From: an uncultured Desulfospira sp.
GTDB lineage: Bacteria > Desulfobacterota > Desulfobacteria > Desulfobacterales > Desulfobacteraceae
Assembly: GCA_963663165.1 (NCBI GenBank)
Contig: OY760175.1
Location: 5,376,001 to 5,440,000 of the forward strand
Direction: 5' to 3'
Length of the DNA stretch: 64,000 nucleotides
Every line of letters begins with the position of its first letter. Position 1 is the first letter of the stretch. The notes below the pieces were generated by a model. It did not search any database, was not told the origin of the DNA, and worked only from the letters and a program-made list of their open reading frames with translations. The position numbers were made by a program, and so were the translations under genes. Below are positions 8,108 to 61,215 of the stretch, piece after piece.

Positions 8108-8986
<879 letters not shown>

Positions 8987-37630: not shown

Positions 37631-37657
37631 TACAGAATTCGGCGGATTGGTTTTAAA
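37631..37657 (-). promoter_or_regulatory. Putative ECF-type promoter upstream of cas6
   Basis: TTTAAA-N15-TCTGTA; same motif and spacing at 49820-49846 and 57756-57782. Confidence 0.55.
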
Positions 37658-37894
37658 AAAAGTTTCAATCCGGATTGTGCAAAACAGAACTGCTTGAGGT
37701 CAATAAAAAAAGCAGAAGCAAATTTATTTTGATAGACCACTTTTCGCTTGGCATGTCAACAATTTATGGGAACAAATAAGCTTGGTTTCCTAACCCGGAT
37801 ATTTCACGAAGTTTCTTTGCCTCATATGCAAGGCACAGGCCGGAAAGCCAATAAAACAGACGGTCCCGATCGTTAACTGGTTTTGGGCGGCGAT

Positions 37895-38731
37895 TTATTT
37901 CATGCCGGTAAGTGTAATGCCCTCGACAAATTTGCGTTGAGCAATCAGGAATATTAAGACCAGGGGGGCTGTTATGATTGCCATTGCGGCCATTAGGGCG
38001 CCATAGTCGTTCCCAGCCTCCTCGTTGATGAACAGGATCGCACCAAGGGGCGGGGTGGCCAGCTTTTCTGAATGAATTACAATCAAAGGCCAGAATAAAT
38101 CATTCCAGTGGGAGACCAGCGAGAAAATTCCAAATGCAGCAACCGCTGGATACGCTGCCGGCAGCATGATGCGCCAGATGATGCTGAACTCGCTTAGACC
38201 GTCAATGCGCGCTGCATATATAAGATCATCGGAAACCGTCCGAAAGAACTGCCGCATAAGAAAAATACCGAAGACCGAAATGGTAAAAGGCGCAATCAGT
38301 GCCGCATAAGTATCCAGAATTCCGGCTTTGTAGCAAAGAATATATCTCGGGATGGCAAGAACCTGGGGCGGTACAAGCAGCCCGATCAGTACCATGGCAA
38401 ACAATGCTTTTTTACCCGGAAAATTTAATTTTGCCAGGGCATAAGCACAGGGAAGGGCAAACAGAACCTGGAAAAAAAAGATACCCGCACACACAATGAC
38501 CCCGTTTGCAATATAGCGAAGCAATGGAGATTCAGTCAGGGCCATTGAATAATTGCGCCAGACAGCCCAGCTGTTTGGCAGAATATGAAATTGAGGACTG
38601 AATAGTTCCTCGGGCGGCCTGAAAGAAATAAGGACGGCCCAGATAAAGGGCGCAAGTGCGATGAATGCACCGGCTATGAGCAGGCAATGCCTGACAGCAG
38701 ACCATACAAATTGTCTTTTTAAATGTTTCAT
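37895..38731 (-). CDS. Carbohydrate ABC transporter permease (UgpE/MalG-like)
   Basis: AARIDG EAA loop, WNDLFWPL. Confidence 0.92.
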   Translation of the reverse strand: MKHLKRQFVWSAVRHCLLIAGAFIALAPFIWAVLISFRPPEELFSPQFHILPNSWAVWRNYSMALTESPLLRYIANGVIVCAGIFFFQVLFALPCAYALAKLNFPGKKALFAMVLIGLLVPPQVLAIPRYILCYKAGILDTYAALIAPFTISVFGIFLMRQFFRTVSDDLIYAARIDGLSEFSIIWRIMLPAAYPAVAAFGIFSLVSHWNDLFWPLIVIHSEKLATPPLGAILFINEEAGNDYGALMAAMAIITAPLVLIFLIAQRKFVEGITLTGMK

Positions 38732-39678
38732 GAATAGTGTATCCGTTTATCCATGAACCATACCTGCAAAAGTGTGAGCGTCAGGATAATTGCCAAATAA
38801 ACAATTGCCAGTGAAGCGGCATGTCCGGTGCGGAAAAAGACAAAGGCCTCATTATAAATTGTGTAGAGCATTACCTCAGACGCCTTGTTCGGTCCCCCCC
38901 TTGTCAGAACGGCAACCGTATCAAAGACCTGAAAGGCCCGGATAGCCGTAATCACCAGAACAAACATGAAAGTGGGGCCAAGAAGGGGCCAGGTGACCAT
39001 GTGAAACTTATCCCAGGCATTGTCTGCACCGTCCACCTGGGCGGCCTCATACAGGTCGCCGGGAATGGATGCAAGCCCGGCAAGAAAAAGAACCATATTA
39101 AAGCCAAATGCCTGCCAGATACCAATGACACACAAAGTGCCCAGAACAGTGGTTTCATTTTGCAGCCAGCTTTTGGAGAGATCCGGCCCCAGGAGCCTGA
39201 TGGCATGATTTAAAAGGCCGATCTGGGGGTGGAGAACCATCTGCCAGGCCACTGCCATGGCTGCCATTGTGGCCATGACCGGCAGAAAATAGGCGGCTTT
39301 ATAAAATGATTTAAGACAGGTGCACGACTCAATCATGATGGCGGCAACAAGACCCATAACCACTGATATGGGAACAACAACGGCCACATAAATGGTCGTG
39401 TTTACCAAAGATTTCAAAAAGACCGGGTCATTGAACAAAACCTGAAAATTATCCAGGCCGACAAAGGAAAACGTGCCGGCACCAAATTCCCAGTCGGTAA
39501 CGCATATGATGATTACCGCCGCTACCGGGCCGATAATCATAAGAAAGATCAGCAACACGGCAGGGGCTGACAGGATATAGGCCGTCAGGGCCTCCATGTT
39601 GCCGTTCAGTCCTCGGGGATTTTTCGGAACAACGCTGTCAGCGGTCATGGTATGTGATATTGGGGGTTTCTCAACCAT
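38728..39678 (-). CDS. Carbohydrate ABC transporter permease (UgpA/MalF-like)
   Basis: FVGLDNF, LYEAAQVDGA; start approximate. Confidence 0.9.
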   Translation of the reverse strand: MVEKPPISHTMTADSVVPKNPRGLNGNMEALTAYILSAPAVLLIFLMIIGPVAAVIIICVTDWEFGAGTFSFVGLDNFQVLFNDPVFLKSLVNTTIYVAVVVPISVVMGLVAAIMIESCTCLKSFYKAAYFLPVMATMAAMAVAWQMVLHPQIGLLNHAIRLLGPDLSKSWLQNETTVLGTLCVIGIWQAFGFNMVLFLAGLASIPGDLYEAAQVDGADNAWDKFHMVTWPLLGPTFMFVLVITAIRAFQVFDTVAVLTRGGPNKASEVMLYTIYNEAFVFFRTGHAASLAIVYLAIILTLTLLQVWFMDKRIHYS

Positions 39679-40840: not shown

Positions 40841-40886
40841 CCCTCATGAGTCCTGACAAAAATCAAAGCCTATGTTTTTCCTGCCG

Positions 40887-41759: not shown

Positions 41760-41769
41760 TTTTGTTGCC

Positions 41770-43038: not shown

Positions 43039-43288
43039 GTTATCCCTTTCCAAAGGCGGCTATCCGTGTTCTTTCCAAGGAGGATGTCTCCCTCATTGCC
43101 GGAAAGCCTTTAATGATTAAGATAAATGGCTAAGACCCAATTAATAATGATATCCGCAAATAACGCATCCCTTATATAATCGGGAATGGTATATGTAAAA
43201 TTGATAGATTCGATCCAATAGGGGTAGCACATTTGTCATATCAATTGCTTTCGCCATGGTTTCAGGATTTTCAAGTTTCCTGTTTTTT

Positions 43289-45429
43289 TGACCAATCCTC
43301 TCTAATCGAGGCGGTGTTTCTGACAAAGGAGATTACCATGTCATCATTAATTTTCAATTCAGTCTCAATCCTCTCTAATCGAGGCGGTGTTTCTGACTGA
43401 ACGCACTCGCAGCCGCCCCCACCGTAGCAACAAGTCTCAATCCTCTCTAATCGAGGCGGTGTTTCTGACGGCCTTGGTAAATTATACGCAGACCGACAAG
43501 GGAGCCGTCTCAATCCTCTCTAATCGAGGCGGTGTTTCTGACTACATGGCCTTTGATCAGGATGGGATGGAAGATTATTGTCTCAATCCTCTCTAATCGA
43601 GGCGGTGTTTCTGACTGATGCTTCATTTCAAACCGACAAAGGCACGTTTGAGTCTCAATCCTCTCTAATCGAGGCGGTGTTTCTGACGACATAAACCATT
43701 TAGCTTCTGCGCAAGAATTGATTTTGTCTCAATCCTCTCTAATCGAGGCGGTGTTTCTGACGGAAGTATACAAAATATAGAAGAGCTTTGGAAATCGTTG
43801 TCTCAATCCTCTCTAATCGAGGCGGTGTTTCTGACCAAAAAAGTAGTTGAAAAATTTCCCCACATGACTAAGTCTCAATCCTCTCTAATCGAGGCGGTGT
43901 TTCTGACAAAAAATGGATGGAAAGAAGGAATTGCGTATGTGGGTCTCAATCCTCTCTAATCGAGGCGGTGTTTCTGACATGGACGAAACAGGAGGGTACG
44001 CGTTTGAAGGTGATTTGTCTCAATCCTCTCTAATCGAGGCGGTGTTTCTGACTGAGAAAAGTAGAATTTAAAAAAATGTACCAGAAGCGTCTCAATCCTC
44101 TCTAATCGAGGCGGTGTTTCTGACGTACCAGAAGCTGATGGAGCACATCGGCAAGAAGGTGGTCTCAATCCTCTCTAATCGAGGCGGTGTTTCTGACAAA
44201 AATTTAAGTAAGATTAACAAGCCCGGCCATTAATTTGGTCTCAATCCTCTCTAATCGAGGCGGTGTTTCTGACACAACTACAATTTCACCCATGATGAAC
44301 CTGAATCAGTCTCAATCCTCTCTAATCGAGGCGGTGTTTCTGACCGGCATCCGTCCTGGCGGCACTGGGGATTCTGCCCACGTCTCAATCCTCTCTAATC
44401 GAGGCGGTGTTTCTGACATCAGAAAACAAATCAACCGCAACTTATCTATCCAAGTCTCAATCCTCTCTAATCGAGGCGGTGTTTCTGACCGGGAACAGCT
44501 GTTAACTATCGAATTGGACGAATATGTCTCAATCCTCTCTAATCGAGGCGGTGTTTCTGACTGAAACTTTTTATCACAACCACCATCAGCCCTATGATGT
44601 CTCAATCCTCTCTAATCGAGGCGGTGTTTCTGACCTTGGCGTTCTGCAAGACCTGGAGCCCGAGGAAATTAGTCTCAATCCTCTCTAATCGAGGCGGTGT
44701 TTCTGACAAATTCAATTTTCAAGTACGTCCTTGGGGCCGTCAGTCTCAATCCTCTCTAATCGAGGCGGTGTTTCTGACTGAATTAAGATTTTTTTAAATA
44801 CATAACCATTTTGAGTCTCAATCCTCTCTAATCGAGGCGGTGTTTCTGACTTGAAATGTCAAAATTGTACATTACCACGACCATCAGTCTCAATCCTCTC
44901 TAATCGAGGCGGTGTTTCTGACACAGTTAAGAAAGAAATCTGTCCAGGAGTTAATGAAGTCTCAATCCTCTCTAATCGAGGCGGTGTTTCTGACTGTCCA
45001 GGAGTTAATGAAAATTGGCGAAAGTGGAATGTCTCAATCCTCTCTAATCGAGGCGGTGTTTCTGACCTTGACGGAGAGCTTTACAACCACGATATGAATT
45101 TGTCTCAATCCTCTCTAATCGAGGCGGTGTTTCTGACCTGGTGCGGAGAAGTTTGGAGATATTATCTTTATGAGTCTCAATCCTCTCTAATCGAGGCGGT
45201 GTTTCTGACTCGAATATTTAAAATAATCTCCTGTCAATTTCTCTCGTCTCAATCCTCTCTAATCGAGGCGGTGTTTCTGACTCTTTGTCTTTGGCTGGTG
45301 ACAAGGAATTAAGAGATAAAAGTCTCAATCCTCTCTAATCGAGGCGGTGTTTCTGACGTTCGATCTTGAAAGCGTCATAGCGGCAAATGCCGAGTCTCAA
45401 TCCTCTCTAATCGAGGCGGTGTTTCTGAC
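43289..45429 (-). CRISPR. CRISPR array 1: 30 repeats, 29 spacers
   Basis: 36-bp repeat GTCAGAAACACCGCCTCGATTAGAGAGGATTGAGAC (minus strand); spacers ~35-40 bp; degenerate repeat at the left (trailer), leader at the right. Confidence 0.99.
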
Positions 45430-45590
45430 TCTGGGTATCTGGAACCTTTGTCCGGCAAGGGTTTCCAAGGCGGTTTTGCCGGACCACCCCTGTTTTTGGG
45501 CTTTGGAAAAAAAGTTCCCACTTAAATTTATGCCGTTTTTAATACAACGCATTGATTTCAAAAGCAATATAAAAATGCCGGACCTCCTTG
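45430..45590 (-). promoter_or_regulatory. CRISPR leader 1
   Basis: Homologous to 59026-59182 (tctgggtatctggaac...ttttgccggacc...tataaaaatgccggacctc). Confidence 0.85.
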
Positions 45591-45660
45591 GGGCTGCCAG
45601 GGTCTGGGGTTGCCCTGTGTTGCCCGGAAAAATAACAGGTTGTCAAAGACCATATGGGCT

Positions 45661-46674
45661 CTAAAACGTCACCGGCTGATACCGGGCTTCTGTGCCTAAA
45701 AGATAGCCGGCAAAACAGCGGACCTGGGTCTGGATGGTGCCGCGAAAGGAGGCAGAACCCCGCATCAGCTCTTCATATGAGACAATAAAGGTCTTATAAA
45801 GGTGGGGCTTCATTTCAACGGGCCTGAGGGCGGCCATCTCCTTTTCATCTGCATAGGTTTTCATCGGGGTGTCCCGGTAATGGAAATCATCCGGCCGGAC
45901 CATTTTCCGATTCAGCAGGTTCAGCACAAACCGGTCGCCGATCAGGCACCGGTACTCCTCCACCAGATCACAGGCCAGGGAAGGCCGGCCATATGCAATT
46001 TCATGCAGGGTCCCCATATAGGGATCAAGCCCACAGCTTTTTATTGCGGATATCACCTCATTTGTCAACAGGGTATAAACAAAGGAAAGCAGGGCATTGA
46101 CCGGATCTTTGGGCGGCCGCCGGTTCCGGTTGGGAAAATGAAAATCCTTGTTCCGAATCAGCAGGTTAAATACGCTAAAGTAAATCCGGGAGCCCGCCCC
46201 TTCAAATCCCCGGACCGCTTCGGGGGTATCGGCCCGGTTCAGGCCGGCGGACAGCGACTTTAAACCGGCAGCCGCCGCCCCAATGCGCGGCTCTTTATAG
46301 TCCCGCCCCCGCCGGGCCAGGAACCAGGCCATGTTGGCCAGTTTTCCAGAGACAATGGCCTTCATCACCAAAAGCTTGAAGGCCGGTTCTTCAAGCCTTG
46401 TGTACTGGGCTTTGCGCAAGGCCACATGCTTGTGTTCATCAATCATAAGCCGGGCCCTGAACCGCCCGGCGGCCGTTAGGAATACGGTTTCCACCCGGTT
46501 TTGGATCAAAAAATCCATAACCGGTCCGCTCAGGGAGATGTTGCCGGTTAAAACCAGTTTATCCAGGCCCTTTGCCGGCAGGCTGTCCACCAGGTGCCCC
46601 TGCTTGACAATATCAAGGCTGGCGCCGTTCTTTTTAAGATACGCCCCCGGCTCAACCACGTACAGGGTTTCCAT
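45661..46674 (-). CDS. cas1: CRISPR-associated integrase Cas1
   Basis: RGFEGAGSRIYF, RNRRPPKDPVNALLSFVY, GLDPYMGTLH, SLACDLVEEYR. Confidence 0.97.
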   Translation of the reverse strand: METLYVVEPGAYLKKNGASLDIVKQGHLVDSLPAKGLDKLVLTGNISLSGPVMDFLIQNRVETVFLTAAGRFRARLMIDEHKHVALRKAQYTRLEEPAFKLLVMKAIVSGKLANMAWFLARRGRDYKEPRIGAAAAGLKSLSAGLNRADTPEAVRGFEGAGSRIYFSVFNLLIRNKDFHFPNRNRRPPKDPVNALLSFVYTLLTNEVISAIKSCGLDPYMGTLHEIAYGRPSLACDLVEEYRCLIGDRFVLNLLNRKMVRPDDFHYRDTPMKTYADEKEMAALRPVEMKPHLYKTFIVSYEELMRGSASFRGTIQTQVRCFAGYLLGTEARYQPVTF

Positions 46675-46690
46675 GCCGTAACCTCCGGTT

Positions 46691-48352
46691 CTATTTTAAA
46701 AATTTTTCCAGCTGGACTATGGCGGTTTTCATGTTTTCAACCGCATGGGCCAGGCTCTCTATTTTTTCACTTTTCACCATGGGGTCCGGGCCCACCCCGG
46801 CCCATGATTCAAGATGGACCAGGGGGTGCAGATACCCTGAGGCATCAGGCTCAATCCGGCAAAAGTCCCGGTCATAACCGGTCAGGGAGTGGATCCTGCG
46901 GCAGCCTAAAGGGGTGCCCCGGACCCGGCTGAGCTTATAATCCACCAGATGGGGATTGTAGTCCCGGGTGGTGGATAAAAGATAATGGAGCATGGCCTTG
47001 CCGCCGGGCAGAAATCCCAGGGTCTGGTATAAAATTTTCTCTTCACGCACCCCGATGCTGTGATGCTCCCGCAGCATGGCGGTCAAACGGCCAATGGCCG
47101 GGCACTTATGTTCCAGTTCAAACAGGTCGGGAAATTTTTTTTTCAAGGCCGTCATTTCAGGGTGCCAAATCAGTTTGGCGGCCTGGGCAGTCTGCATGTG
47201 GTCTGAAAGCCGGTCCGGATTAGACCGGGCAACCGTATTAATGAACTTAAGCTGGGCATCCACATCCTTTTGGGGGCAGTCCGGGAAAAAAGAGCGCCCG
47301 CCACTTTGCCGGTGAATGCCCAGGGGCAGCTTGACCAGGTTGCCCAGCCCTTTGCCGGACAAATGGTCCTGCTTGGGAAATACCTCCAGCTTAAAGCATG
47401 ACAGGTCCGGGGCCAGGCTGTCGCAGATCTCGGTCAGGGCCTGGCGGATCCGGCCGGCCGGAACCGGTGACGCCATGAAAAACCAGAAATGGTATCCTTT
47501 TCCCCCGCTGAACTCAATCACCGGGGACAGCCCCAGTTTTCCGGCAGCTTCGCTGATTCGCGCCGCCATGTAAGCCCGGTCTTTGCGGATCCGGCCCCTG
47601 GCCCGGGCAAGGTCCGGACCTCCGGCGCTGCGCAGTTCGGGAACCAGGTCGGCATCAATCACCGCACACTTGACCGTGGCATCTGTGTTCATCAGATAAA
47701 ACCCGTAGGTTTTGGTGCCTTTAAAATGGTCTTCCATATCCCCGCAGGTCACCGGCCGACGGACCGGGACATACCCGCAGGTGCCTTTTTGCCGGTCTGC
47801 CCACTGCCGGGCAAACACATCGGTCCGGGAGAAAAACAGATCCATAAACCCTGAGACCATTTGCTGCCGGGTATGCATTCGCTCAAAGGGCGCTGTACAG
47901 GCATCCAGGCCCGGGCCGGAGTTACTTTTTTCCGGACCGTTATAAACGCTGTGTACCCAGGACAGGGCCTTTTCTTTGCCCACATGGCCCTGGGCCCGGA
48001 GGAGAAGGGACGCCAGGGCCTTCTTTTGCCCCAAAATATCCAGGAGTTCGATCCAGGCCTGCCAGGCGCTTTCAAAGGCCGGATCTTTTGTGGTTAAATA
48101 TTTATAGATTTCCAGGGCCGGGTCCACGCATCCCGCGATCTGGGCAATCCTGGCCCACTGCATGGCCTGGTCAGGGGTCAGCCTTTGCCAAACCTCTGCC
48201 CTGCCAAGCACCTTTCGGCATTTGTCCGGGGCCTTATCTTCCAGAACTGCCTGTTCCAGCTGCCGCAACAAAAGCGTATAATCGGTGCGGCCCTGCCCGG
48301 GTGACCGGTTCCGGTCAGGGGCCGTTTGGGGGGCATGTAGCGATTGTTCCAT
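46691..48352 (-). CDS. CRISPR-associated primase-polymerase (CAPP, TPR-AEP-PriL type)
   Basis: N-terminal TPR-like region; AEP motifs VIDAD, FSGGKGYHFW, EVFPKQD, GNLVKLPLG; C-terminal Cys residues; directly upstream of cas1. Confidence 0.88.
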   Translation of the reverse strand: MEQSLHAPQTAPDRNRSPGQGRTDYTLLLRQLEQAVLEDKAPDKCRKVLGRAEVWQRLTPDQAMQWARIAQIAGCVDPALEIYKYLTTKDPAFESAWQAWIELLDILGQKKALASLLLRAQGHVGKEKALSWVHSVYNGPEKSNSGPGLDACTAPFERMHTRQQMVSGFMDLFFSRTDVFARQWADRQKGTCGYVPVRRPVTCGDMEDHFKGTKTYGFYLMNTDATVKCAVIDADLVPELRSAGGPDLARARGRIRKDRAYMAARISEAAGKLGLSPVIEFSGGKGYHFWFFMASPVPAGRIRQALTEICDSLAPDLSCFKLEVFPKQDHLSGKGLGNLVKLPLGIHRQSGGRSFFPDCPQKDVDAQLKFINTVARSNPDRLSDHMQTAQAAKLIWHPEMTALKKKFPDLFELEHKCPAIGRLTAMLREHHSIGVREEKILYQTLGFLPGGKAMLHYLLSTTRDYNPHLVDYKLSRVRGTPLGCRRIHSLTGYDRDFCRIEPDASGYLHPLVHLESWAGVGPDPMVKSEKIESLAHAVENMKTAIVQLEKFLK

Positions 48353-48388
48353 GATATCTGCTTTCTTGTATTTGTGTGAACCGGGCCG

Positions 48389-49759
48389 TCAATGTCTGAC
48401 CATGGCCCGGAGCCGGTCTATTTTGGGATAATGGTACGCTGCGCAGGATTCCAGCTCGGTCAGCAGCTGATCCGCCTTTCGTGTATCCCCGGCTTTAAAT
48501 GTGCAAAGGCTTTGCCAGAAAAGGCCTTCCAGGAAAGGGTTGCCGAATGTGGTGCTGAAAAAATCACAGGCCCGGGCCGCATGGGCCGCAGCCGCATCAA
48601 AATGGTCCAGCCGGTATTCAATTTTGGTCAGGCGGATCAGGCCCACATGCCGGGAACGCGAATCCTTTTCCACCACCCGGGTTAATATCTGCCTGGCCTG
48701 ATCAAACCGGCCTGCGGTACACAGTACGTCGGCTTCAGTCCAGCGGTAGTAGGGCCGGCGAATTTTTTCAGGCACATGGCCAATGGTTTCAAGGGCTTTA
48801 TCCACCTGCCCCAGGGCCAGATAGGTCCGGGCCAAAAGTTCGTGGATAAAATCCGTGGGCCGCCCTTTGCCGCTGCTTTGAAGGGCAAACATCAGTGCGT
48901 TCCGGGCCTCATCAAACCGGTCCAGGGCAAAATGGACCTTGCCCAGGGCGAAATACTTGAATCCCAGGTTGATATGGTTGGTCTGCTCATCTATCTTCAG
49001 GCAGCCGGTGATCCGGTCCATGGCCTTTTTGCCGTTTCCCAGGGCCAAAGAGAGGCTGGCGCTGCGGTACAGGGATTTAATGTAATTCTTTTTTTCCTGG
49101 TGGCGTTCCTCCCGCTCCCGGTCGGTTAAGCCTTCCCAGTTTGAGCAGGCTTTGTCAAAACAGGAAAGCCCCGGTTTGGGCTTGTTTTCAATCTGGGAGA
49201 AAAGCATGCCCTCCCGGTAAAAGTTGGTCACCGTGTCCGGCCGCAGCTTCTGGGCCTTTTGAAAATATTCGTGGGCCAGGGAGATCCGTTCAGCCCGGGC
49301 TTTCCCGGCCAGAAACACCTGTTTGTTTTTGGCGGCCCACAGACTATTGTACGCGGTATATGCCAGGGATGCGCAGGCCATGAAGTGATCCGGTTCCGCC
49401 GCCACGCAGGTCTTAAGTTCCTTGAGGGCCTCGTCAAACCGGCCCGCCTGGCCCAGGGCAAAGGCCACCTTCAGCCGCACCGGGCCGTCCATCTTCCCGG
49501 ATACCAGATCCGGCACTTTTTCGTCTACCGGATGGTACAGGCTTAGCAGATCATCCCACCGGCAGCCCCTGGACAACTCGTCAATGTCGGAAAGGACCTG
49601 GTTTCTGTTTTTTTTCATGTACCGGCCCGCGGCCACCCCGAAAAGCTCCCGGTCCGAGAACAGCTCTTTTTGCCCGGGTTCCGGTACCACTGTTTCCGGA
49701 CCCGGTGTTGCCGTCCGGACAGATCCGATAATTCTTGCTGCTGCCTGAAGTTCTACCAT
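48389..49759 (-). CDS. TPR-repeat protein heading the CAPP-cas1 operon
   Basis: Multiple TPR units (AFALGQAGRFDEAL, LGKVHFALDRFDEA, LARTYLALGQVDKAL). Confidence 0.85.
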   Translation of the reverse strand: MVELQAAARIIGSVRTATPGPETVVPEPGQKELFSDRELFGVAAGRYMKKNRNQVLSDIDELSRGCRWDDLLSLYHPVDEKVPDLVSGKMDGPVRLKVAFALGQAGRFDEALKELKTCVAAEPDHFMACASLAYTAYNSLWAAKNKQVFLAGKARAERISLAHEYFQKAQKLRPDTVTNFYREGMLFSQIENKPKPGLSCFDKACSNWEGLTDREREERHQEKKNYIKSLYRSASLSLALGNGKKAMDRITGCLKIDEQTNHINLGFKYFALGKVHFALDRFDEARNALMFALQSSGKGRPTDFIHELLARTYLALGQVDKALETIGHVPEKIRRPYYRWTEADVLCTAGRFDQARQILTRVVEKDSRSRHVGLIRLTKIEYRLDHFDAAAAHAARACDFFSTTFGNPFLEGLFWQSLCTFKAGDTRKADQLLTELESCAAYHYPKIDRLRAMVRH

Positions 49760-49819: not shown

Positions 49820-49846
49820 TACGGAGGCAGATTCATAAATTTTAAA
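49820..49846 (-). promoter_or_regulatory. Putative ECF-type promoter upstream of TPR-CAPP-cas1
   Basis: TTTAAA-N15-TCCGTA. Confidence 0.6.
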
Positions 49847-50076: not shown

Positions 50077-51351
50077 TCATCTGAAATTCTTACCGTGGTC
50101 TTCAAATGAAAACGGATTAAGAAACTGGCGGCCCCAAAGCAGTTTTTTATCCACATCACTGAGCTGGGCTTCCTCACAGACCTCATCCCAATGGTCCCGG
50201 ATCACGGCTTCAATATGGGCGCACATGTCAAGGGCCTCTTTTTCCGCCAATAAGAAATGGTGGGCCGTCTCAATGCAATTTTTTAATTGGCTCAGGTTGT
50301 TGCTGCCATGAATTTTCATGGCCTGGGATGCCTCATTTCCGGCCCGGCCCTGGGGGCAGATGTCATATGCCGGTGTCAGTTCAAGCTGTTTGCCATCCCA
50401 GAACGCCGCATGGTTTCTGGCATGGTCATCGGTGTTGCCGCACAGGATATTGAACACCAACCGGCCAAACATCTCCTTGAGGGCCTTTTTAGGGGTTATA
50501 AACCGGTTTCGGATAATCTGGGCCAGATCCTGGTAGCTGGCGTACCTGGCCGTCATGTCGGTCAGCTCAAACAGGGTCAGCGCAGATACCATAAGCTTGC
50601 GTGTCCAGCCGGCCGCTGTTTTTATCCGGTCAAAGCGCTGGACCAGCAGCACATCTTTACCGGCCGCTTTAACCAGTTTCACGGGTGCCACATCAAGCCC
50701 GGCTGTCCCAGCCAGCCGCATGGCAATGAACTCTGCTTTAATCACGCTGTAAAGATCGGTATGGGAGGAAAATTTAGCAATATATTTAGTGCCGTGATCC
50801 TCTATCAATGCCTTTGGCCGGGCACCGCCGATGGAGGTGCCGTGAAACAGGGCCTGATCCAGTTCAGGACTTAACGGGGTGCCCTGCTCAACCCTTTGGG
50901 CCGATGCCAGTAACTCTTCCAGGCCGGCGTTGATCGCCGATCTTGGTACATACCGGGTTGGTGATGCCTGAAAATCCAGTGCGCCGATGCGATCCGACCC
51001 GGATTCCAATAAATAGGTGATCTCGCCCAGTTGCGTGGTGTCGGCGGTCACACCGTTGCGCCCCAGTTTCTTGTTGATGATCACACGGCGTCCCCAAGCG
51101 TCGGGCGCGGCATCTCTTATGCAGTTTGGCATATCCAGGCCGCCGATCAAGGGCAGTTTGCCGTGGATCAGGGGCAGCTCCGGTTCATAGATTGGAATCC
51201 CGGGTCTATCCGCGTTGGTGCGCTCAAGATAGCTTCTGCCGTAGTTGAATGTGATGACATGATCATCTGCTTCAAGTTTGCCTGCCACCACCGGATCAAC
51301 AGCGCCCGGCAGCCATATCCAGACAAATGCCTCATGGCCCTTAGAAGTCAT
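50077..51351 (-). CDS. hipA: HipA-family kinase toxin
   Basis: DAAPDAWGR, SIGGARPKA, RFDR, GNTDDHARNH, LTPAYDI. Confidence 0.92.
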   Translation of the reverse strand: MTSKGHEAFVWIWLPGAVDPVVAGKLEADDHVITFNYGRSYLERTNADRPGIPIYEPELPLIHGKLPLIGGLDMPNCIRDAAPDAWGRRVIINKKLGRNGVTADTTQLGEITYLLESGSDRIGALDFQASPTRYVPRSAINAGLEELLASAQRVEQGTPLSPELDQALFHGTSIGGARPKALIEDHGTKYIAKFSSHTDLYSVIKAEFIAMRLAGTAGLDVAPVKLVKAAGKDVLLVQRFDRIKTAAGWTRKLMVSALTLFELTDMTARYASYQDLAQIIRNRFITPKKALKEMFGRLVFNILCGNTDDHARNHAAFWDGKQLELTPAYDICPQGRAGNEASQAMKIHGSNNLSQLKNCIETAHHFLLAEKEALDMCAHIEAVIRDHWDEVCEEAQLSDVDKKLLWGRQFLNPFSFEDHGKNFR

Positions 51352-51673
51352 CGTCCACCTTGTCTGATGTTGACCGGATACGCTTGGGCAAAAGACAGAT
51401 TTTATCATCCATATGTTTTAACCTTATGGGCAGGGCCACCCCATCCTGCTCAAACAAATTAAGACCGGCCAGGGCGGCCACCTCAAAGGCCAGCCCGATG
51501 GACGGGGTCATTTCGCCTGATTCGATTTTTTGAAGGGTTGCCCTTGAGATCCCGGCACGTTCAGCCAAATTTTGTTCAGACCATCCCCGCTGCTTTCGGA
51601 ACAGTTTAATCTGTTTTCCAAGCAATAGGACCGCTTCTTTTGCGGTTGTGGAATATGTCCGTTTTCGTTTCAT
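51341..51673 (-). CDS. XRE-HTH antitoxin (HipB-like)
   Basis: RKQRGWSEQNLAERAGISRATLQKIESG; overlaps the hipA start. Confidence 0.88.
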   Translation of the reverse strand: MKRKRTYSTTAKEAVLLLGKQIKLFRKQRGWSEQNLAERAGISRATLQKIESGEMTPSIGLAFEVAALAGLNLFEQDGVALPIRLKHMDDKICLLPKRIRSTSDKVDDDF

Positions 51674-51876
51674 GGTGACTAATATAATTAATTTTAAGAC
51701 ATTCAATGGCTATTATATTGATCATATTCTGGTTTGTCAAACGATATGCTTTGAAAAATTGAGGATCGGGGTCAGGTAATGTAATGGAGGCCGGAAACCG
51801 GAAGAAGGGAGACCGGATGCGCCCTCCAAGGGAACCCGGCATCCGGCATCTATCGCTCCATTTTGGGTCAATGCAA

Positions 51877-51929
51877 GGTAGGAGCGGGCCATGCCCGCGA
51901 TCAAATCGCGGGCATGGCCCGCTCCTACC
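51877..51929. repeat. GTAG-type REP doublet (REPIN-like)
   Basis: ggtaggagcgggccatgcccgcgat-caa-atcgcgggcatggcccgctcctacc. Confidence 0.85.
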
Positions 51930-52074
51930 CTACCGCTCAAACCAGGGAACCTGACGGTTTCGGTCTCCCGTCTCCCTTCCTTCCGGTCTCCATTCTTTAT
52001 TGTCCTTATCATCAAAAGGGATACCACCTGTGTGCAAGTTACATGCATTCACCCTGTTGTCCACATGCGAAAAT

Positions 52075-53352
52075 TTATGGTTCCGGCTGCATCAGAAAAC
52101 CTTCCTGATTCAATGCCTGAACAATGGCTTGAAGGCTTTTAAAAAATGCCTCGCCCTTTTTCATAATATCTGTTTTTGCCTCTTTTTTGCTGGTCCAGGC
52201 ATGGTCAAACCCGTTTCGGTACGCGATCAGGTCTTGGGCGATTTCTTTCATTTTTATGATAATTTTTTTTTCCGCCATTGCCCGGAAAAGCGGTAGAATC
52301 GTTTGATGATGCGCCAGGCGCTCACCGCGAAAGTTCCACTCATTTTCATTTACCTGAAGCATATTAATGAACACATCTGCCTTTTGCCGTTGATCTCTCC
52401 TTTCCTTGTTGGTTATTCCCATATTTTCTTTCATCCGGATAAGCCCAAAAGACCCCAGCATCTCCCGCATCACCGTATAGGCCTGCATGAACAGCTTGTG
52501 TTCAAGGAGCAGCCGGACGATTTCCAACTGGATTTTGAAATAATCAAGGTCATACCGGCCGGAAAATGTTTTTTCAAAAACCAGGGAGACGAATTTTTCC
52601 TTGACCAGGTCGAACAGAATTTTGCCGGTCACACCGGCGTCATTTTCTTTTTGCCGGACAATGTCCAGTGCCCTGGATGCTTTCTGGGACACATTGTGGA
52701 TATCCACATTCTTCAATGCACCGGTAAGGTCTTGGAAGGCACAGATCAATTCCGGATCATTAAATTCATCGAGCTTGCCGGCTGCCTCATTTTCAGCCAC
52801 CACCGCCAATTTCCCCGGGTCGGCATCTTCAACCAGACGGGACACGGCATCGGTCCATTCATTGATCACGTAAAAATCTTTCATGTCAATAATGGGCGAC
52901 AGCTCTTTATTGCTCTCATAGGCCCCGTAATACACGGCTTTAAGCCGGACGCTCTTGGCTTTTTGCAAAAAATTCAGGGCCGTGGAAAAAACAATGGGAA
53001 TGATTCTGTATCCATGGGTCATATCAACGTACAGCTCATCCCCATGGTCGATATGACTGAGGATCTCCTCAAACCAGGACCATTGATCTTCAGGGTTGAG
53101 TTCTTCGGTTATGTCAATTTCCCGGACGTCATTAATCCCGATTTTTGAAAGTTCCTGTTGTAAACTCAGATAGTGCTTTTTCCGGGATGTGCTTGTCATG
53201 ACCAGGAAAATTTGATCGAAAAATCCCGGGCCGGCCAATTGAAGCTCAGCAAACTGGACATATGGGGATGGATCGGCTTTTTGGCCGTTAATATGGTAAA
53301 CAGCAGAATCATATTTGCCTGCCCCTAAAAAACTGATGTATATGCGCCTCAT
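52075..53352 (-). CDS. csx1: CARF-HEPN CRISPR ancillary nuclease (TM1812/Csx1-like)
   Basis: ISFLG, VDMTHGYRIIP, VYYGAYE, IIDM...W; HEPN motif RNGFDH. Confidence 0.85.
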   Translation of the reverse strand: MRRIYISFLGAGKYDSAVYHINGQKADPSPYVQFAELQLAGPGFFDQIFLVMTSTSRKKHYLSLQQELSKIGINDVREIDITEELNPEDQWSWFEEILSHIDHGDELYVDMTHGYRIIPIVFSTALNFLQKAKSVRLKAVYYGAYESNKELSPIIDMKDFYVINEWTDAVSRLVEDADPGKLAVVAENEAAGKLDEFNDPELICAFQDLTGALKNVDIHNVSQKASRALDIVRQKENDAGVTGKILFDLVKEKFVSLVFEKTFSGRYDLDYFKIQLEIVRLLLEHKLFMQAYTVMREMLGSFGLIRMKENMGITNKERRDQRQKADVFINMLQVNENEWNFRGERLAHHQTILPLFRAMAEKKIIIKMKEIAQDLIAYRNGFDHAWTSKKEAKTDIMKKGEAFFKSLQAIVQALNQEGFLMQPEP

Positions 53353-53388
53353 ATTTTTCTCCTGATATCATTAACGTTTTAAATCACA

Positions 53389-55491
53389 TTATCCGTAAGA
53401 AAACGGGAAAACCCTGTCATGGTTTTCTCTGACATACCTTAAGGCCTCTGGGAAAGGCCGGTCAAACAGAAAGTAGAAATGGTCCGGGTTCAACGCAGAA
53501 GCTGCCGGTTTGATCTGTTTTTCCCATTGGGAAAGGCCGGATAAAAAGGGTTGTTCCGGGGGCAGATCCGGCACAAAGGCCAGGGGCTTGAGGGCCATGA
53601 TTTCAATGGTCGGCCCCTGCCCGGTATTCAGGCAGACCCCCAGGCTTTTTTCAAAAAGCTGCCTGGCCGTTCCCCGGTCTTCCTTTATTAAGGCGGTCCG
53701 GCCCAGGTTAAAGAAAACAAGCTGCCAGGGGTGCTGAGTCTTAAATTGTTCAAAGGCATGGGACACCAGGGGATGATACCATTCATCAAGGCCCGGTAAA
53801 TTGCCCCGGGCCGCGAACCGGCAGAGCATGGAAATCTGCCATGGGGTAAGGGCATGAATGCTGTCCGGGCCCCGGCCGTCAAGGCAGGTTTCAAGGCAGG
53901 CATCGGCCCCGGCCATATCCTTTGCATTGAGCCGGGCCGTGCCAAGGTAGTCGTACTGGCGAATCCACTGATTTTTAAGTTCTGGCGAAAGGGGCTCGCC
54001 AAGGGCCTGCCGGGCCTTTACCGACAGGGTTTCAGTTTCCCGAATAGCATCCGGGCCGCAAAAGGCGAAATTTTGAACCAGGGTTCCGTATACCCGGCCA
54101 AGGGCAAGATCGGTCATGCAGCCAAAGGCCTGCTGGACAGCCTGCCGGCGTTCCATAAATTCAAGGAGCCGGGCCAGGGCCTTTGGCACTTTGGGTGAAA
54201 ATTCATACCGGTTGTGGGCCGCCACCAGGGCGTGGTTGAAAAAGTCAGCGGCAAGGTTGATATCCAGCCCCATGACCGGGTCTATAAATGCATTCCCCGT
54301 ATTCTCCCATTCCGTTGCCTGTCCGATTTTTCCTGAATGGTTGGCCAGGCTCAGATTGGCCGTACACCAGACCAGGCAGGCCATGGGCATGGCCCCGGGC
54401 AGGCCTTTGGGAGAAAATTCTGCCAGGGCCGCTGCCCTTTCAACCTCAAATTCTTCCACCATCAGGGCAAACTTGCGGACAAATCGTCCAAACAGGTCCG
54501 GGCAGCTGAATATCCGGCCCAGCAGGTCCTGAACCGCTTGCTTTTCGTGAAAGATCCAGTCTGCGGGCAGGCTGTCCATCTTATCAATAAAGGATGCCGG
54601 GTCCTGAAGGGCCCGGGAAAAAACAAAGAGCAGGTTGTCCTGCCGGCCGGAGTATAGGGAGGCCACGGTAACGCTTTCGGCAAAACAGGACACCGGCACA
54701 AGCCCTCTGGCGTTATGTCCGGGCCTTGAGCCTGCCGGAATCAGCAGGCATTTGAACCTGGAAGAGAGCGCGGCCCGGATTTTCCGGTCGAGCATGCCAA
54801 CGGGCAGCACATCCCCTGAATCATTCAGGCCGCCTGTAGCGATCAGGTCTCCGGAAACCGGAATTTTATTCAAAAGGCTTTTAAAACCAATGCCCATACT
54901 TAAGCCCCCGGAGCGTCCTTTAAATTGGATCTGGCCGTTGGCCGGGGCCATGGGAAACAGAACAAACCGTGAATTTCCAGGGTCAGGCCCCGGGCGGCGG
55001 GCCAGGCGCTCTGCCGTTTTTATCGTTTCAATGAAGGGGGTGTCCATGGCCTTTTGTGCCCATTTCGGAATATGGACCGGCCCGGCTTCTCCAGGCACAA
55101 GGCCTGCCACAAACCAGGCGACCCTCGCCATGCCGCTGCCGGCCCCAAGTACGGGAACCCTGGCCCAGTCTCCTTGCACCAACCGGTTGAAGTCAACGCC
55201 TGAATATGTTTCAGGCCGGGTGTTTTCGGCTATAAAATCCCTGACCCATGCCGGCTTTGAAGGGCCAAGCAAATATACGGCCCCCAGGGCGCGGTGGAAT
55301 AATTCCAGGAGAACCGGATCATCCATATAAGAGAGGATATCATGATAGGCGGCCTTAAAATCATCAGGACCGGTTCCGCTCCAGGGAACACAGGCCAGAT
55401 CCGATATCATGGCCTGGAAGTGGCCCATGGCGTTTCGGGCGGCAAAGCACAGGTCCTTAATGGTATTCACATGGCTCACGGCAAATCCCAT
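53389..55491 (-). CDS. Lon-protease (S16 catalytic) domain protein with C-terminal TPR-like region
   Basis: KGRSGGLSM...IATGGL..SGDVLPVGMLDRKIRAA...LLIP; Ser and Lys 43 residues apart; no AAA module. Confidence 0.85.
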   Translation of the reverse strand: MGFAVSHVNTIKDLCFAARNAMGHFQAMISDLACVPWSGTGPDDFKAAYHDILSYMDDPVLLELFHRALGAVYLLGPSKPAWVRDFIAENTRPETYSGVDFNRLVQGDWARVPVLGAGSGMARVAWFVAGLVPGEAGPVHIPKWAQKAMDTPFIETIKTAERLARRPGPDPGNSRFVLFPMAPANGQIQFKGRSGGLSMGIGFKSLLNKIPVSGDLIATGGLNDSGDVLPVGMLDRKIRAALSSRFKCLLIPAGSRPGHNARGLVPVSCFAESVTVASLYSGRQDNLLFVFSRALQDPASFIDKMDSLPADWIFHEKQAVQDLLGRIFSCPDLFGRFVRKFALMVEEFEVERAAALAEFSPKGLPGAMPMACLVWCTANLSLANHSGKIGQATEWENTGNAFIDPVMGLDINLAADFFNHALVAAHNRYEFSPKVPKALARLLEFMERRQAVQQAFGCMTDLALGRVYGTLVQNFAFCGPDAIRETETLSVKARQALGEPLSPELKNQWIRQYDYLGTARLNAKDMAGADACLETCLDGRGPDSIHALTPWQISMLCRFAARGNLPGLDEWYHPLVSHAFEQFKTQHPWQLVFFNLGRTALIKEDRGTARQLFEKSLGVCLNTGQGPTIEIMALKPLAFVPDLPPEQPFLSGLSQWEKQIKPAASALNPDHFYFLFDRPFPEALRYVRENHDRVFPFSYG

Positions 55492-56627
55492 CCCGTGTGG
55501 TGGACAATAAACACGGCCAGGCTTTGGCCCGGGGAAAGGGGGCGGTCAAACAGGGCCATAAACCGCTTGCCGTGTCCTTCCCATACCCATTTGCAGGCCA
55601 TGAGCAGCCGGTTGTTTTCGTCCTTTATATAGCATTGAAACGCATCTTCGGGGATGTCATCGGGCAATCCCTCGATAACGCCGTTGACCGAATAGGACGC
55701 CGGAGGTGAGGCCTCGTATTTGATGTTGCATTCAATGGGCCTGGCATCCTGCATGCCCTCCTGGTTGAAACAAAAATACCCTGCCGTGATGGTGAGCCCG
55801 TCATTCTCAGCGGCCCTCATGGGCAGGACATGGGAAGGAAAGCGCAAAAGCGCCATGCACTCTTCAACGGTCCCGGGGGGCCAGTCCCAGCCAATGCCGG
55901 TGAATTTTTCTTCAAGTTTTGCCTTAAGCGCTTCAAGGCCGATGGGGACAGGGCGCTTTTCATGTTCAGCGGCTGTGCGCCCTGGGGCCATGGCGGCAAA
56001 GGCCTGCCCGATTTTCAGCTCAAGCTCCCTGAAAAAAATTCTGGGATCATGGTCCTGCATGGGCATGGGCTTAAGGGCCCATTCCGGCAAATGGTCCGGA
56101 TCTTTGGCCATCTTAAGGGCGCTTTCAATCACCTTTGGGGCCAGGGTCCCTAATAATGGCCCCATAAAGCGCTCCGGAAGGGTGTAGATATTCCAGGTCT
56201 GAATCAAAATTTCCGAAAGGCCCTGGATCATGTTTTCCGGGGGGACCAGGTCGCCGGGACCGGCCAGGGCCGTATCGGGCCACACCTGGGCCAGGGTCAC
56301 CATGCCGCCGGGTTTGATTTCAAGAAGCGCTGCCTGGGGGGCGTTGTAATAATCATCCCCCTGCCAGAACGAGAGTTCAGGGTCAAGTATCCGCACCTGG
56401 CCGGTTTGAATCGGGGAATTCTCCGGGGAAACGGTGAAATCGGCTTCCAGTTTTTCAGACAATATTTCCCAGGCCTCTATTTCGTCTTTGAGCATTGTGG
56501 AACAAAAGGGGCAGACCGCCAGATGACGCCGGAACTGCTCTGCATGTTCGAGATTCTGTTTAACCTTTAACGGCGGACAGGTTCTCAATTGTCTGGCCAG
56601 TGCCAGTGCCTGTTTTCTGGTATACAT
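55476..56627 (-). CDS. Putative zinc-binding anti-sigma factor with a MazF/CalpT-like middle domain
   Basis: HLAVCPFC (Hx3Cx2C ZAS motif); IQTGQVRIL...IQTWNIYTLP...LGTL; directly downstream of the sigma-like gene. Confidence 0.7.
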   Translation of the reverse strand: MYTRKQALALARQLRTCPPLKVKQNLEHAEQFRRHLAVCPFCSTMLKDEIEAWEILSEKLEADFTVSPENSPIQTGQVRILDPELSFWQGDDYYNAPQAALLEIKPGGMVTLAQVWPDTALAGPGDLVPPENMIQGLSEILIQTWNIYTLPERFMGPLLGTLAPKVIESALKMAKDPDHLPEWALKPMPMQDHDPRIFFRELELKIGQAFAAMAPGRTAAEHEKRPVPIGLEALKAKLEEKFTGIGWDWPPGTVEECMALLRFPSHVLPMRAAENDGLTITAGYFCFNQEGMQDARPIECNIKYEASPPASYSVNGVIEGLPDDIPEDAFQCYIKDENNRLLMACKWVWEGHGKRFMALFDRPLSPGQSLAVFIVHHTGWDLP

Positions 56628-56640
56628 GGATCATCCTTTC

Positions 56641-57690
56641 TTACATTTGTTCCCGGGGCGTGAGCCAGTCGTTTAAATTCCGGCACAGGCAGTCCATGAA
56701 AAAATCAAAATCCCTGCCGTCCTGGCCGTCGCCGTCATAGTCCGGCGACAGCCAGTTAAGGTCTCGCAAAAACGATTTAAGCTTTTTGTGGATCAACTTT
56801 TTCTGGTAGGAAAGGTTTGATTTCATCTTCATTAACTCGGATACGGCCTTGTGGGGCAGCCCTTTGCATTCATAATAAAAGAACAGGCGTTTTTCCCGGT
56901 CTTTTAACCGGTGAAAAAAATTACCGGCCCAGGTTGTGATCAGGCTGTTTTGGGTCTGATCCGCAGACTGGGTTCCGGGATGATGGGCCAGGGGATTAAA
57001 TTCGTCTTTATCCGTCCCGGCCATGGGGTATGAATCAACCCCGGGCTGCAGCACCACATACCGGCTCACCCAGGCTAGAAAATCCATAAGGTCGATCCGG
57101 ATACCGGGCTCACCGGTAAGCTTGGCTGAAGATGTCCAGAAATGGCGGGCCAGCCTGAGGATATTATCCCGGGTGTTCAGGGCGGTGTACTCCCCGGGCA
57201 GGTCAGGGGGAAAGCCTATGGTCATGAGATCTTCAATCATGACCAGGGTTCGCGGAAGGCCTTCAGAGCGGCTGAACAGGGTTTTTCCTCGGGGGGTGTC
57301 TTTGACTTTGAAAAATTCACCGGACTGGTTCAGGACATCCAGCACATGGCGGTAAAACAGGCGCCAGGTGTCTTTATAGATGTCCTGGCTGCCTTGTCTG
57401 CTCCTGGACAGGTCCATCATCCGGTGCCACAGGAATGTCCTGACCCGCTTCATGGCCCCTGGGCTTTTGCCCATCAGTTCGGCGGGCACGGTCTTGTCCC
57501 TGATCAGAAAAATCATCAGTTCCTGCCGGATATCATCGGGGTGGATCTGTTCCGGGGCAACGCCGTACAGGCCAAGTCTGGAAAGTTTCATTTTTTTGTG
57601 AACCGCATCAACAAGCCGGTCTACTGCATCGGCGTTTTCTTTTTTTTCAAGCCAGGCCTGGAATTTAAGTTTGAAACAGTTGTCATTCAT
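56641..57690 (-). CDS. ECF-like sigma factor with a long inter-domain insertion
   Basis: Region 2-like DDIRQELMIFL...FLWHRMMDLSR; region 4-like RLKDREKRLFFYYECKGLPHKAVSELM...IHKKLK. Confidence 0.72.
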   Translation of the reverse strand: MNDNCFKLKFQAWLEKKENADAVDRLVDAVHKKMKLSRLGLYGVAPEQIHPDDIRQELMIFLIRDKTVPAELMGKSPGAMKRVRTFLWHRMMDLSRSRQGSQDIYKDTWRLFYRHVLDVLNQSGEFFKVKDTPRGKTLFSRSEGLPRTLVMIEDLMTIGFPPDLPGEYTALNTRDNILRLARHFWTSSAKLTGEPGIRIDLMDFLAWVSRYVVLQPGVDSYPMAGTDKDEFNPLAHHPGTQSADQTQNSLITTWAGNFFHRLKDREKRLFFYYECKGLPHKAVSELMKMKSNLSYQKKLIHKKLKSFLRDLNWLSPDYDGDGQDGRDFDFFMDCLCRNLNDWLTPREQM

Positions 57691-57755
57691 GGGTCCCCGC
57701 CGTTATCAGGTGAGTGAATTGTTTTCAATCATGGGTGCCGTTCTTTTATTACATA

Positions 57756-57782
57756 TACGGAGCCGGAAAGGAAAGTGTTAAA
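57756..57782 (-). promoter_or_regulatory. Putative autoregulatory ECF-type promoter of the sigma operon
   Basis: TTTAAC-N15-TCCGTA, 66 bp upstream of the start codon. Confidence 0.6.
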
Positions 57783-61202: not shown

Positions 61203-61215
61203 GTCAGATTCCTTT

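Follow-up and report, generated by a model that had tools for sequence, protein, structure and literature searches.

A candidate promoter motif shared by the operons of a type III-D CRISPR island that encodes an ECF-like sigma factor in an uncultured Desulfospira sp.

The CRISPR island and its sigma operon

We studied a 64,000-nucleotide (nt) stretch from the genome of an uncultured Desulfospira sp. (contig OY760175.1, positions 5376001 to 5440000; we will refer to this entire stretch as the window). [quoted passage not shown] The island contains two type III-D cassettes, cas6, a CARF nuclease, csx20, cas2 genes, a reverse transcriptase gene with cas1 (RT-cas1), and four arrays of 11 to 30 repeats, and both of the Cas10 proteins in this genome retain GGDD. 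Three units in the window, all on the minus strand, are preceded by copies of the same two-box motif: an operon that begins with a gene for a sigma factor resembling the extracytoplasmic function (ECF) type, an adaptation operon, and a truncated copy of cas6. Here we describe the motif, the genes that it precedes, and the sigma factor that probably reads it.

The sigma operon is headed by the first of these sites and has genes of 349, 383, 700, and 425 amino acids (aa), all on the minus strand. The first gene (56641..57690) encodes the ECF-like sigma factor, with a sigma2-like N terminus, an insertion of about 130 residues, and a sigma4 domain at about residues 237 to 316. Three comparisons identify sigma4: the Pfam model Sigma70_r4_2 matches 24 of 50 homologs (best E = 9e-7), sigma chains in PDB match at profile positions 233 to 315 (best E = 1.4e-4), and the domain aligns with SigK with a root mean square deviation (rmsd) of 1.4 over 62 residues. 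When the predicted structure (predicted local distance difference test, or pLDDT, of 84) was compared with known structures, the top 24 VIA-align rows were all sigma factors (best Z = 8.2; rmsd of 4.2 over 79 residues), and the N terminus aligned to an N-terminal fragment of SigR (Z = 5.7; rmsd of 3.1 over 76 residues), which is a fold alignment without a hidden Markov model (HMM) match. The initial annotation had proposed an ECF-type sigma factor nearby, and the HMM matches to sigma4 and the sigma fold matches agree with an ECF-like protein. Three results count against this assignment: no Sigma70_r2 HMM match was found in the 349-aa family, the best VIA-align Z is close to the stated background range, and the best Foldseek match of the model had E = 0.02, with none at E ≤ 0.001. 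Also, the extra residues between sigma2 and sigma4 are mostly folded, in place of the short linker of the ECF architecture, and an insertion of this size is atypical for an ECF sigma factor.

The second gene (55476..56627) encodes a putative anti-sigma factor of 383 aa, which appears to be soluble. Residues C17, H35, C39, and C42 are invariant, which we take to be the pattern of a zinc-binding anti-sigma factor, and an Ala-Ala pair at about residues 272 to 273 lies before the C-terminal domain. Ala-Ala is kept in 28 of 30 full-length anti-sigma factors (one of them doubtful), or in 20 of 30 by a strict pattern. The predicted complex of the sigma factor with the first 225 residues of the anti-sigma factor scored 0.82, while the best of three controls scored 0.00; the mark for this score is reached by 116 of 157 solved pairs and by 2 of 215 mismatched pairs. 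The runs agree in at least 92% of contacts, the partner's pLDDT is at least 87, and the predicted interface (sigma residues 9 to 33, 67 to 89, 250 to 261, and 305 to 318) includes both sigma domains. Binding of the two proteins is thus predicted, although the score may reflect likeness to solved pairs of zinc-finger anti-sigma factors and sigma factors. The anti-sigma factor has no Pfam match and no informative sequence match in PDB, including to CalpT, the anti-sigma factor of a system that we compare below. CalpT has MazF-like and DUF2080 domains, and the middle region of our anti-sigma factor may resemble MazF.

The third gene (53389..55491) encodes an ATPase-less Lon protease of 700 aa with a TPR-like C-terminal half (Lon-TPR). 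Among 15 Lon-TPR proteins, the catalytic dyad (S194 and K237) is invariant; Pfam's Lon_C matches 13 of the 15 and TPR_2 matches 6, and neither SAVED nor CARF is among the 10 families listed for them. PADLOC has no family for the 700-aa protein. The TPR-like half is assigned from HMM matches; a single-sequence model of the protein had a pLDDT of 41. Similarity to CalpL, the protease of the same related system, is weak (E = 5.7e-4) and is confined to the Lon domain (residues 188 to 266). A search with the Lon-TPR profile found 356 clusters at 50% identity (E ≤ 1e-30). The last gene of the operon (52075..53352) encodes a CARF-HEPN (Csx1-like) effector of 425 aa (PADLOC CARF2--CARF_HEPN, E = 9e-162).

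In many relatives, another gene of about 155 aa (gene X) lies directly before the sigma gene (for instance, L035:2532-3011), but it is absent before the window's sigma gene. The nearest named Atlas cluster to gene X is PemK/MazF-like (at 0.86), which is a lead only. Gene X has no informative PDB match and no common PADLOC family, and the profiles of gene X and the anti-sigma factor do not match each other. Elsewhere in the island, between a Mutator-family transposase and the second cas10, there are remnants that resemble gene X (HMM E = 6e-8) and, by eye, the C-terminal part of Lon-TPR (G000:C1:5459225-5459620). These suggest that an older copy of the module was destroyed.

The adaptation operon (45661..49759, minus strand) encodes a TPR protein, a CRISPR-associated primase-polymerase (CAPP), and Cas1, as identified by PADLOC (TPR, PrimPol, and Cas1) and by NCBIfam matches above the cut-off (NF040561 and TIGR00287). 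The truncated cas6 (37083..37583, minus strand) encodes the N-terminal half of the protein (166 aa) and is followed by a lone CRISPR repeat near 37031.

A two-box motif ahead of the island's operons

The initial annotation had placed a shared motif upstream of these three units. All three sites are present on the minus strand with the same layout: each is 27 nt and has two 6-base boxes separated by a 15-base spacer (6+15+6). Site 1 (57756..57782) is 65 nt 5' of the sigma ATG, is a candidate autoregulatory promoter, and has an ortholog in a related genome, G504. Site 2 (49820..49846) is 60 nt 5' of the ATG of the TPR gene; across 15 distinct promoters orthologous to it, the boxes are kept and the spacer varies. 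Site 3 (37631..37657) is 47 nt 5' of the truncated cas6, and TCTGTA replaces TCCGTA. Site 3 adds no independent instance of the motif: it lies within a 632-nt duplicate, 81% identical, of the full-length cas6 together with its promoter. Overall, the bipartite motif was borne out, and we refined it to TTT(A/G)A(A/C)-N15(14-16)-(T/G)CCGT(A). ECF sigma factors have an "AAC/CGT" promoter rule.

The exact pattern from the initial annotation has six matches in the 6.74-Mb genome: the three sites in the window, one before the full-length cas6 (position 5483387, 43 kb past the window), and two elsewhere. The same pattern with other spacer lengths (8 to 23, excluding 14) gave 0 to 4 matches each. By itself, this count is modestly above background, and so the position of the matches had to be examined: it is clustering and position that carry the signal.

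We therefore relied on a matrix trained on 25 sites (23 of them distinct) with at most one mismatch to the refined consensus. These sites were drawn from the 300 nt upstream of the orthologs of the TPR gene (24 loci) and cas6 (30 loci) in the family, and none comes from G000 itself. Their selection relied on a consensus that was first seen in G000, so the matrix is not fully independent. With the limits of the island set by the outermost cas6 genes, six of the seven genome-wide matches with scores of at least 24 are on the minus (coding) strand of the island (0.04 expected), as are 10 of the 37 matches with scores of at least 18 (0.20 expected). The plus strand of the island has no matrix matches, and patterns with wrong spacers (10, 11, 12, 19, 20, or 21) have no matches in the island. 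Once the cas6 and TPR sites with orthologs in the training set are set aside, 34 matches are left, of which 7 are in the island (binomial P = 6e-10). Similarly, just 11 of the 4,544 open reading frames (ORFs) of at least 150 aa in G000 have a site with a score of at least 18 near their start, and 7 of the 11 are in the island. In the genome-wide scan that the initial annotation had called for, then, the matrix matches cluster in the island, and the exact pattern also occurs twice outside it.

Site 2 scored 24.5 (rank 6 in the genome) and site 3 scored 18.4. Site 1 matches the consensus exactly but scored just 10.9, since no training site has C as its sixth base. Beyond the window, on the minus strand of the island, the matrix identified sites before the full-length cas6 (5483388), cas2-RT-cas1 (5470457), the second cas10 (5459202), a pair of ORFs of 57 and 113 aa (5467567), a receiver-domain gene (5466922), and a PARP-like gene (5466300). 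Two of these, at cas10 and cas2, were known before the matrix was trained. The sites at 5466300, 5467567, and 5466922 are wholly new intergenic sites, and G419 has orthologs of all three. Two more sites lie within an AAA gene outside the window, ahead of a 193-aa ORF. Weak matches close to array leaders (scores of 12 to 16) were not counted.

The initial annotation's regulon comprised the sigma operon, TPR-CAPP-cas1, and cas6. All of these are headed by sites, but the candidate regulon is wider than adaptation: it also takes in both type III-D effector operons and accessory genes. As for CRISPR RNA processing, the initial annotation relied on the window's cas6, but this gene is a truncated copy, and the claim has to rest on the full-length cas6 beyond the window, which carries a site of its own.

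Could the motif be due to chance, or to inherited sequence without a function, such as A/T-rich leaders and copies of a few ancestral promoters? Site 3 is indeed a duplicate, the orthologous promoters share ancestry, and the exact pattern has two matches outside the island and up to four with other spacers. However, the motif precedes unrelated genes (cas6, TPR, cas2, cas10, PARP-like, receiver-domain, anti-sigma, and primase genes) with only the boxes in common; when orthologous promoters are aligned, CCGT proves near-invariant and the spacers variable; and the enrichment persists without the orthologous sites. This explanation is largely excluded.

Alternatively, the motif might be an operator for a transcription factor, either a sigma-like protein that does not work with RNA polymerase or some other regulator, and not a promoter. 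The sigma2 domain is backed by its fold only and the insertion of about 130 aa is unusual, which would fit such a protein. But in G000, the motif is non-palindromic and strand-specific, with two boxes 14 to 16 nt apart that lie 24 to 138 nt before start codons. This is the anatomy of a promoter, and we consider an operator very improbable.

A TTGACA hexamer lies about 100 nt upstream of the motif in both copies of cas6 (near 37755 on the minus strand in the window), and could provide basal expression from sigma70. The best match outside the island (score of 25.2; G000:C1:4583771, minus strand) is just before a response-regulator gene, which is followed by an ORF that looks, by eye, rubrerythrin-like. 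This site is possibly a chromosomal target, or it may be due to chance.

The three new intergenic sites belong to an accessory cluster (G000:C1:5462658-5467473) that encodes small ORFs, a receiver domain of the cyclic-phosphate-processing type, a PARP-like protein whose N terminus is hydrophobic, and a HerA/TraD-like ATPase. In G419, the PARP-like and receiver genes are immediately upstream of the sigma operon. The AAA gene with two motif sites is part of a long operon between two arrays (G000:C1:5435537-5449767, whose low end is at 59537-64000 in the window). This operon encodes coiled-coil, radical-SAM-like, double AAA ATPase, PP2C phosphatase, vWA, histidine kinase-like, and receiver proteins, along with a 789-aa ORF that is kinase-like by eye.

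The window also contains two CRISPR arrays, both assigned to the minus strand by inference (for the first, from the position of the leader): one with 30 repeats (43289..45430) that is directly 3' of cas1, and one with 14 repeats (58048..59025) that is upstream of the sigma operon. A HipBA-like pair (50077..51740, minus strand) lies between sites 1 and 2; it has its own perfect sigma70 promoter (51740-51712) and is outside the regulon. Toward its low end, the island looks eroded: there are two lone, slightly divergent CRISPR repeats (14630-14680 and 37016-37066), with a stretch rich in insertion sequences between them, and a segment in the same region is duplicated (at 15126 and 33894). The island borders a nitrogenase gene cluster (1-8932, with NifH and four genes from the component-1 family). 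No Rfam match was found in the window.

The motif and the sigma module in related genomes

Members of the 349-aa sigma family occur in 34 of the order's 401 genomes and in 21 of the family's 161. The gene order is conserved and is often gene X, sigma, anti-sigma, and Lon-TPR. The sigma/anti-sigma/Lon-TPR trio adjoins type III-A systems (G109 and G437), type III-B systems (G504, G049, and G233), or the type III-D system of G000, which favors a diffusible signal over a contact that is specific to one subtype. The initial annotation implied that the motif would be conserved at orthologous loci, and this is so: in G233, G504, G437, and G432, which are assemblies of one or two contigs each, the motif heads the sigma operon, TPR-CAPP-cas1, and cas6.

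We then applied a fixed test, which asked whether the best score in the 300 nt before cas6 or TPR reached 18. (Loci were scanned with TPR, since the sigma alignment varied too much for this purpose.) Among the clade-A genomes with the sigma module, 15 of 17 had such a site, as did 2 of 4 genomes with clade B, which is a distant second clade of the sigma factor; the one genome with a protease fragment at a contig edge; and 2 of 14 genomes in which no module was found. The test left out G496, whose contig has no sequence upstream of the gene, TPR fragments without a 5' end (L093, L096, L098, and L100-L102), and the 15 of 45 cas6 places without a locus.

Clade B (G492, G354, G413, and G412) is found beside anti-sigma-like genes, at L167:2736-10616 (G492), L163, L179, and L180. 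Its sigma factor has a profile match of 72.7% (E = 3e-5), Lon-TPR is present in G492 and G354, and the anti-sigma factor keeps Ala-Ala in all four. In three of the four genomes, the sites end in TCCGTT, which two clade-A genomes carry as well. These four genomes had first been scored as lacking the sigma factor, and G406, a fifth, has a Lon-TPR fragment at the end of a contig.

In families of the same order that were held out of training, eight large loci gave five matches (0.9 expected). Four of these precede TPR, cas6, anti-sigma, and primase-like genes, and the fifth has no assigned gene. Among small order-level loci, 5 of 19 have a match. In contrast to the genomes with the module, five near-complete genomes without the sigma factor have 4 to 10 scattered matches each, which is no more than for a reversed-pattern control, and these do not cluster.

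Several observations weaken the association. First, the clade-A count is circular in part, since those genomes supplied the training sites and the consensus was first seen in G000. Second, with the common ancestry of related loci, the genomes are not independent cases. Third, some genomes have sites without a detectable module: G507 and G517 have sites before broken TPR or cas1 genes, while G160 (97% complete) and G410 have single sites in wider loci. These four are drafts, and for the remaining 10 module-negative genomes the scan was confined to the regions before cas6 or TPR. A search with the clade-B alignment of these four drafts and G406 (87 to 97% complete) found nothing. Fourth, no site was found in the stretches examined of G412, G092, and G070 or of the sigma locus of G146. 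Fifth, some homologs of the sigma factor are away from CRISPR genes and have a shortened anti-sigma factor and no adjacent protease, as in G146.

The initial annotation also proposed that the sigma factor induces itself. In this lineage a site heads the operon, but this is clear in just five of 42 loci, all from close relatives (G000, G504, G233, G437, and G432), and so autoregulation does not seem to be general; G404 has a site with one mismatch at the same place. No motif was found directly upstream of the sigma gene at any of 29 homolog loci. This is because the gene of about 155 aa usually precedes it, so we repeated the test at the head of the operon. Ten genomes (G479, G449, G162, G180, G261, G117, G484, G481, G462, and G446) have a site at the sigma/anti-sigma junction, which, judging from its placement, would drive the anti-sigma factor and the protease. 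In G419, sites lie upstream of the accessory genes that precede the sigma operon.

Another genome, G146, has a tandem array (G146:C1:1541898-1546339, or L235:11898-16339) of 26.6 units, each about 168 bp in size and containing a long perfect palindrome. Nineteen units have an exact match to the promoter motif, all directed at a 292-aa ORF that looks phage-antirepressor-like. This ORF has no NCBIfam match, the array has no Rfam match, and the sigma homolog with a shortened anti-sigma factor lies elsewhere in the genome. No comparable run of matches was found in five related draft genomes. The motif in this array may be a chance match that was multiplied by duplication.

Might a sigma factor of the host, such as FliA, RpoH, sigma70, or another ECF sigma factor, read the motif, with the island's sigma factor as a bystander? 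TAAA-N15-xCCG resembles the sigma28 consensus and TTGAAA-N14 resembles that of sigma32. G000 has five Sigma70_r2 genes, and the sites in four genomes without a detected module would also fit. But the one flagellin gene with a canonical sigma28-like site (ending in CCCGATA) reaches 10.6, and none of the five further flagellin-family genes exceeds 4.5; among heat-shock genes, groES, three hsp20 starts, and grpE reach at most 9.9; and just two of nine sites in G000 have TAnnnT at the position expected for sigma70. We rejected the sigma70, sigma28, and sigma32 readings of the motif on these results. Furthermore, the top matches are concentrated in the island instead of being spread across the genome, and the near-complete genomes without the island's sigma factor show no cluster. 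A host sigma factor is therefore an improbable reader of the motif.

A proposed switch and its relation to known systems

We think it likely that this promoter is recognized by a sigma factor that is encoded in the island and freed by the protease, and that the island's processing, interference, adaptation, and accessory genes are switched on in this way. A single alarm could then activate the entire immune locus. The comparative basis for this proposal was computed here: the motif with its position, strand, spacing, and conservation, its co-occurrence with the sigma factor, the sigma fold, and the intact Lon dyad. The two boxes would be the -35 element, TTT(A/G)A(A/C), and the -10 element, (T/G)CCGT(A), of a dedicated alternative sigma factor. 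At rest, the zinc-finger N terminus of the anti-sigma factor would clamp the sigma factor across sigma2 and sigma4, as in the predicted complex. Upon a signal, the SAVED-less Lon-TPR would cleave the anti-sigma factor at the conserved Ala-Ala site, which would expose a C-terminal Ala-Ala degron; host proteases would clear the remainder and the sigma factor would be freed. Its targets would be cas6 together with the first III-D effector operon, the operon of the second cas10, the two adaptation modules (TPR-CAPP-cas1 and cas2-RT-cas1), and the accessory genes, joined in this lineage by its own operon. The anti-sigma factor and the protease would be among its targets in other lineages, which would reset the switch. 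We infer the cleavage site, the degron, and the release by analogy to CalpL-CalpT-CalpS.

The least certain part is the trigger. A diffusible product of Cas10 that is bound by the TPR half is our first candidate, held with somewhat less than even confidence; a phage or stress ligand is a plausible second, and direct contact with the effector complex seems rather unlikely. A trigger derived from Cas10 has a difficulty: if the sigma factor drives cas10, then it needs basal expression of cas10. With the motif ahead of the cas10 operons, there would be either a feedback loop that is primed by basal expression or a trigger that lies upstream of CRISPR.

This leads to a variant with the same promoter and the same sigma factor, in which the switch is independent of CRISPR: the TPR half would sense a phage protein or a stress ligand and wake a quiet island, as for the DdvA/DdvS pair described below, which is a precedent for it. 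The lack of SAVED or CARF matches in the 15 Lon-TPR proteins fits this variant, as do the motifs ahead of the cas10 operons themselves and the sigma homologs without nearby CRISPR genes (in G146 and G376). On the other hand, in this order, the trio is beside cas6, CARF, or csm/cmr genes in most of the large loci examined, the cyclase motifs of Cas10 are intact and CARF effectors are present, and the anti-sigma factor retains a CalpT-like site. We consider the CRISPR-independent switch to be unlikely but worth keeping in mind.

The logic of a sigma factor released by a protease is known from other CRISPR systems. The closest one is CalpL-CalpT-CalpS, which similarly has three adjacent genes by a type III locus, encoding an ATPase-less Lon protease with a catalytic serine, a two-part anti-sigma factor with an alanine-rich site, and a sigma factor of an ECF-like kind. 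The CalpL system is activated by cA4. According to the available part of its description, CalpL cuts CalpT within LAAA and leaves an Ala-Ala degron, and that part names no promoter motif for CalpS (bioRxiv 10.1101/2024.05.08.593097), whereas here a motif and a candidate regulon are defined. The proteins differ too: CalpL has a SAVED half where Lon-TPR has a TPR-like half; our anti-sigma factor is longer than CalpT, has a zinc finger, and has no PDB match to it; and our sigma factor, unlike CalpS, has 349 aa with a large insertion.

In type III-E systems, CASP-sigma has three motif matches in its own locus, at cas1 and at two other genes, and its protease is TPR-CHAT (Csx29) on Cas7-11, as far as the accessible text goes (PMC10028731). 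By eye, the boxes and spacing of its sites (TCACATT-N13-CGAC; Table S2 of the same source) are unlike the motif that we describe. Also, Lon-TPR is found beside multisubunit III-A, III-B, or III-D systems. The effectors of the island are two multisubunit III-D cassettes with Cas10, not Cas7-11 with TPR-CHAT, and no chain of Csx29 is among the 60 PDB matches listed for Lon-TPR. Unlike the CASP-sigma regulon as given in the portion of that paper at hand (PMC10028731), the one proposed here spans cas6 and the cas10 operons as well.

In Myxococcus xanthus, DdvS is an ECF sigma factor that, with the zinc-binding anti-sigma factor DdvA, runs an entire type III-B CRISPR/CBASS (cyclic oligonucleotide-based antiphage signaling system) island and its own gene, which is similar to what we propose. 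However, DdvA is a membrane protein with a periplasmic TPR-CHAT (PMC11506125, from the text available), while our anti-sigma factor is apparently soluble and the protease is a separate Lon-TPR. The SAVED-CHAT/PCaspase/PCc-sigma system is also a type III locus with a protease-controlled sigma factor, but its proteases are caspase-like and activated by cyclic triadenylate (cA3), and the accessible part of the source leaves the targets of the sigma factor open (bioRxiv 10.1101/2023.06.23.546230). A survey of type III effectors lists CalpL, and the word TPR is absent from its available text (PMC11229360). Our literature search, which most subscription journals were beyond, found no paper on the Lon-TPR/sigma module or its motif. 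Thus, the regulatory logic has precedent in CASP-sigma and CalpL-CalpT-CalpS, but a protease without a known sensor, an enlarged sigma factor, and an island-wide promoter code have none in the literature that we searched.

For protease-released CRISPR sigma factors, targets are given only for CASP-sigma; none are named for CalpS or PCc-sigma in the parts of those sources that were available. The comparative data supply a motif, the operons that are its candidate targets, and a site where the anti-sigma factor may be cut, so that the targets of a released sigma factor become testable. The motif also flags accessory genes (PARP-like, receiver-domain, small membrane, and HerA/TraD-like ATPase genes) as likely defense genes. 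No nucleotide sensor is known in Lon-TPR, although it lies beside III-A, III-B, and III-D systems, so identifying what activates it could uncover a new receptor for a second messenger or a new alarm that acts upstream on CRISPR expression. More speculatively, and we offer this only as a tentative view, Lon-TPR might represent a type III CRISPR effector class of its own, in which the TPR-like half serves as a receptor that has yet to be described, either for a second messenger from Cas10 or for a ligand from a phage. The sigma factor would be the master switch of the whole island, for processing, interference, the acquisition of spacers from DNA and RNA, and accessory genes, with feedback of two kinds: self-amplifying where a site heads the sigma operon, and self-resetting where it heads the anti-sigma factor and the protease. 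The promoter code might then be readable across the 356 clusters of the protease.

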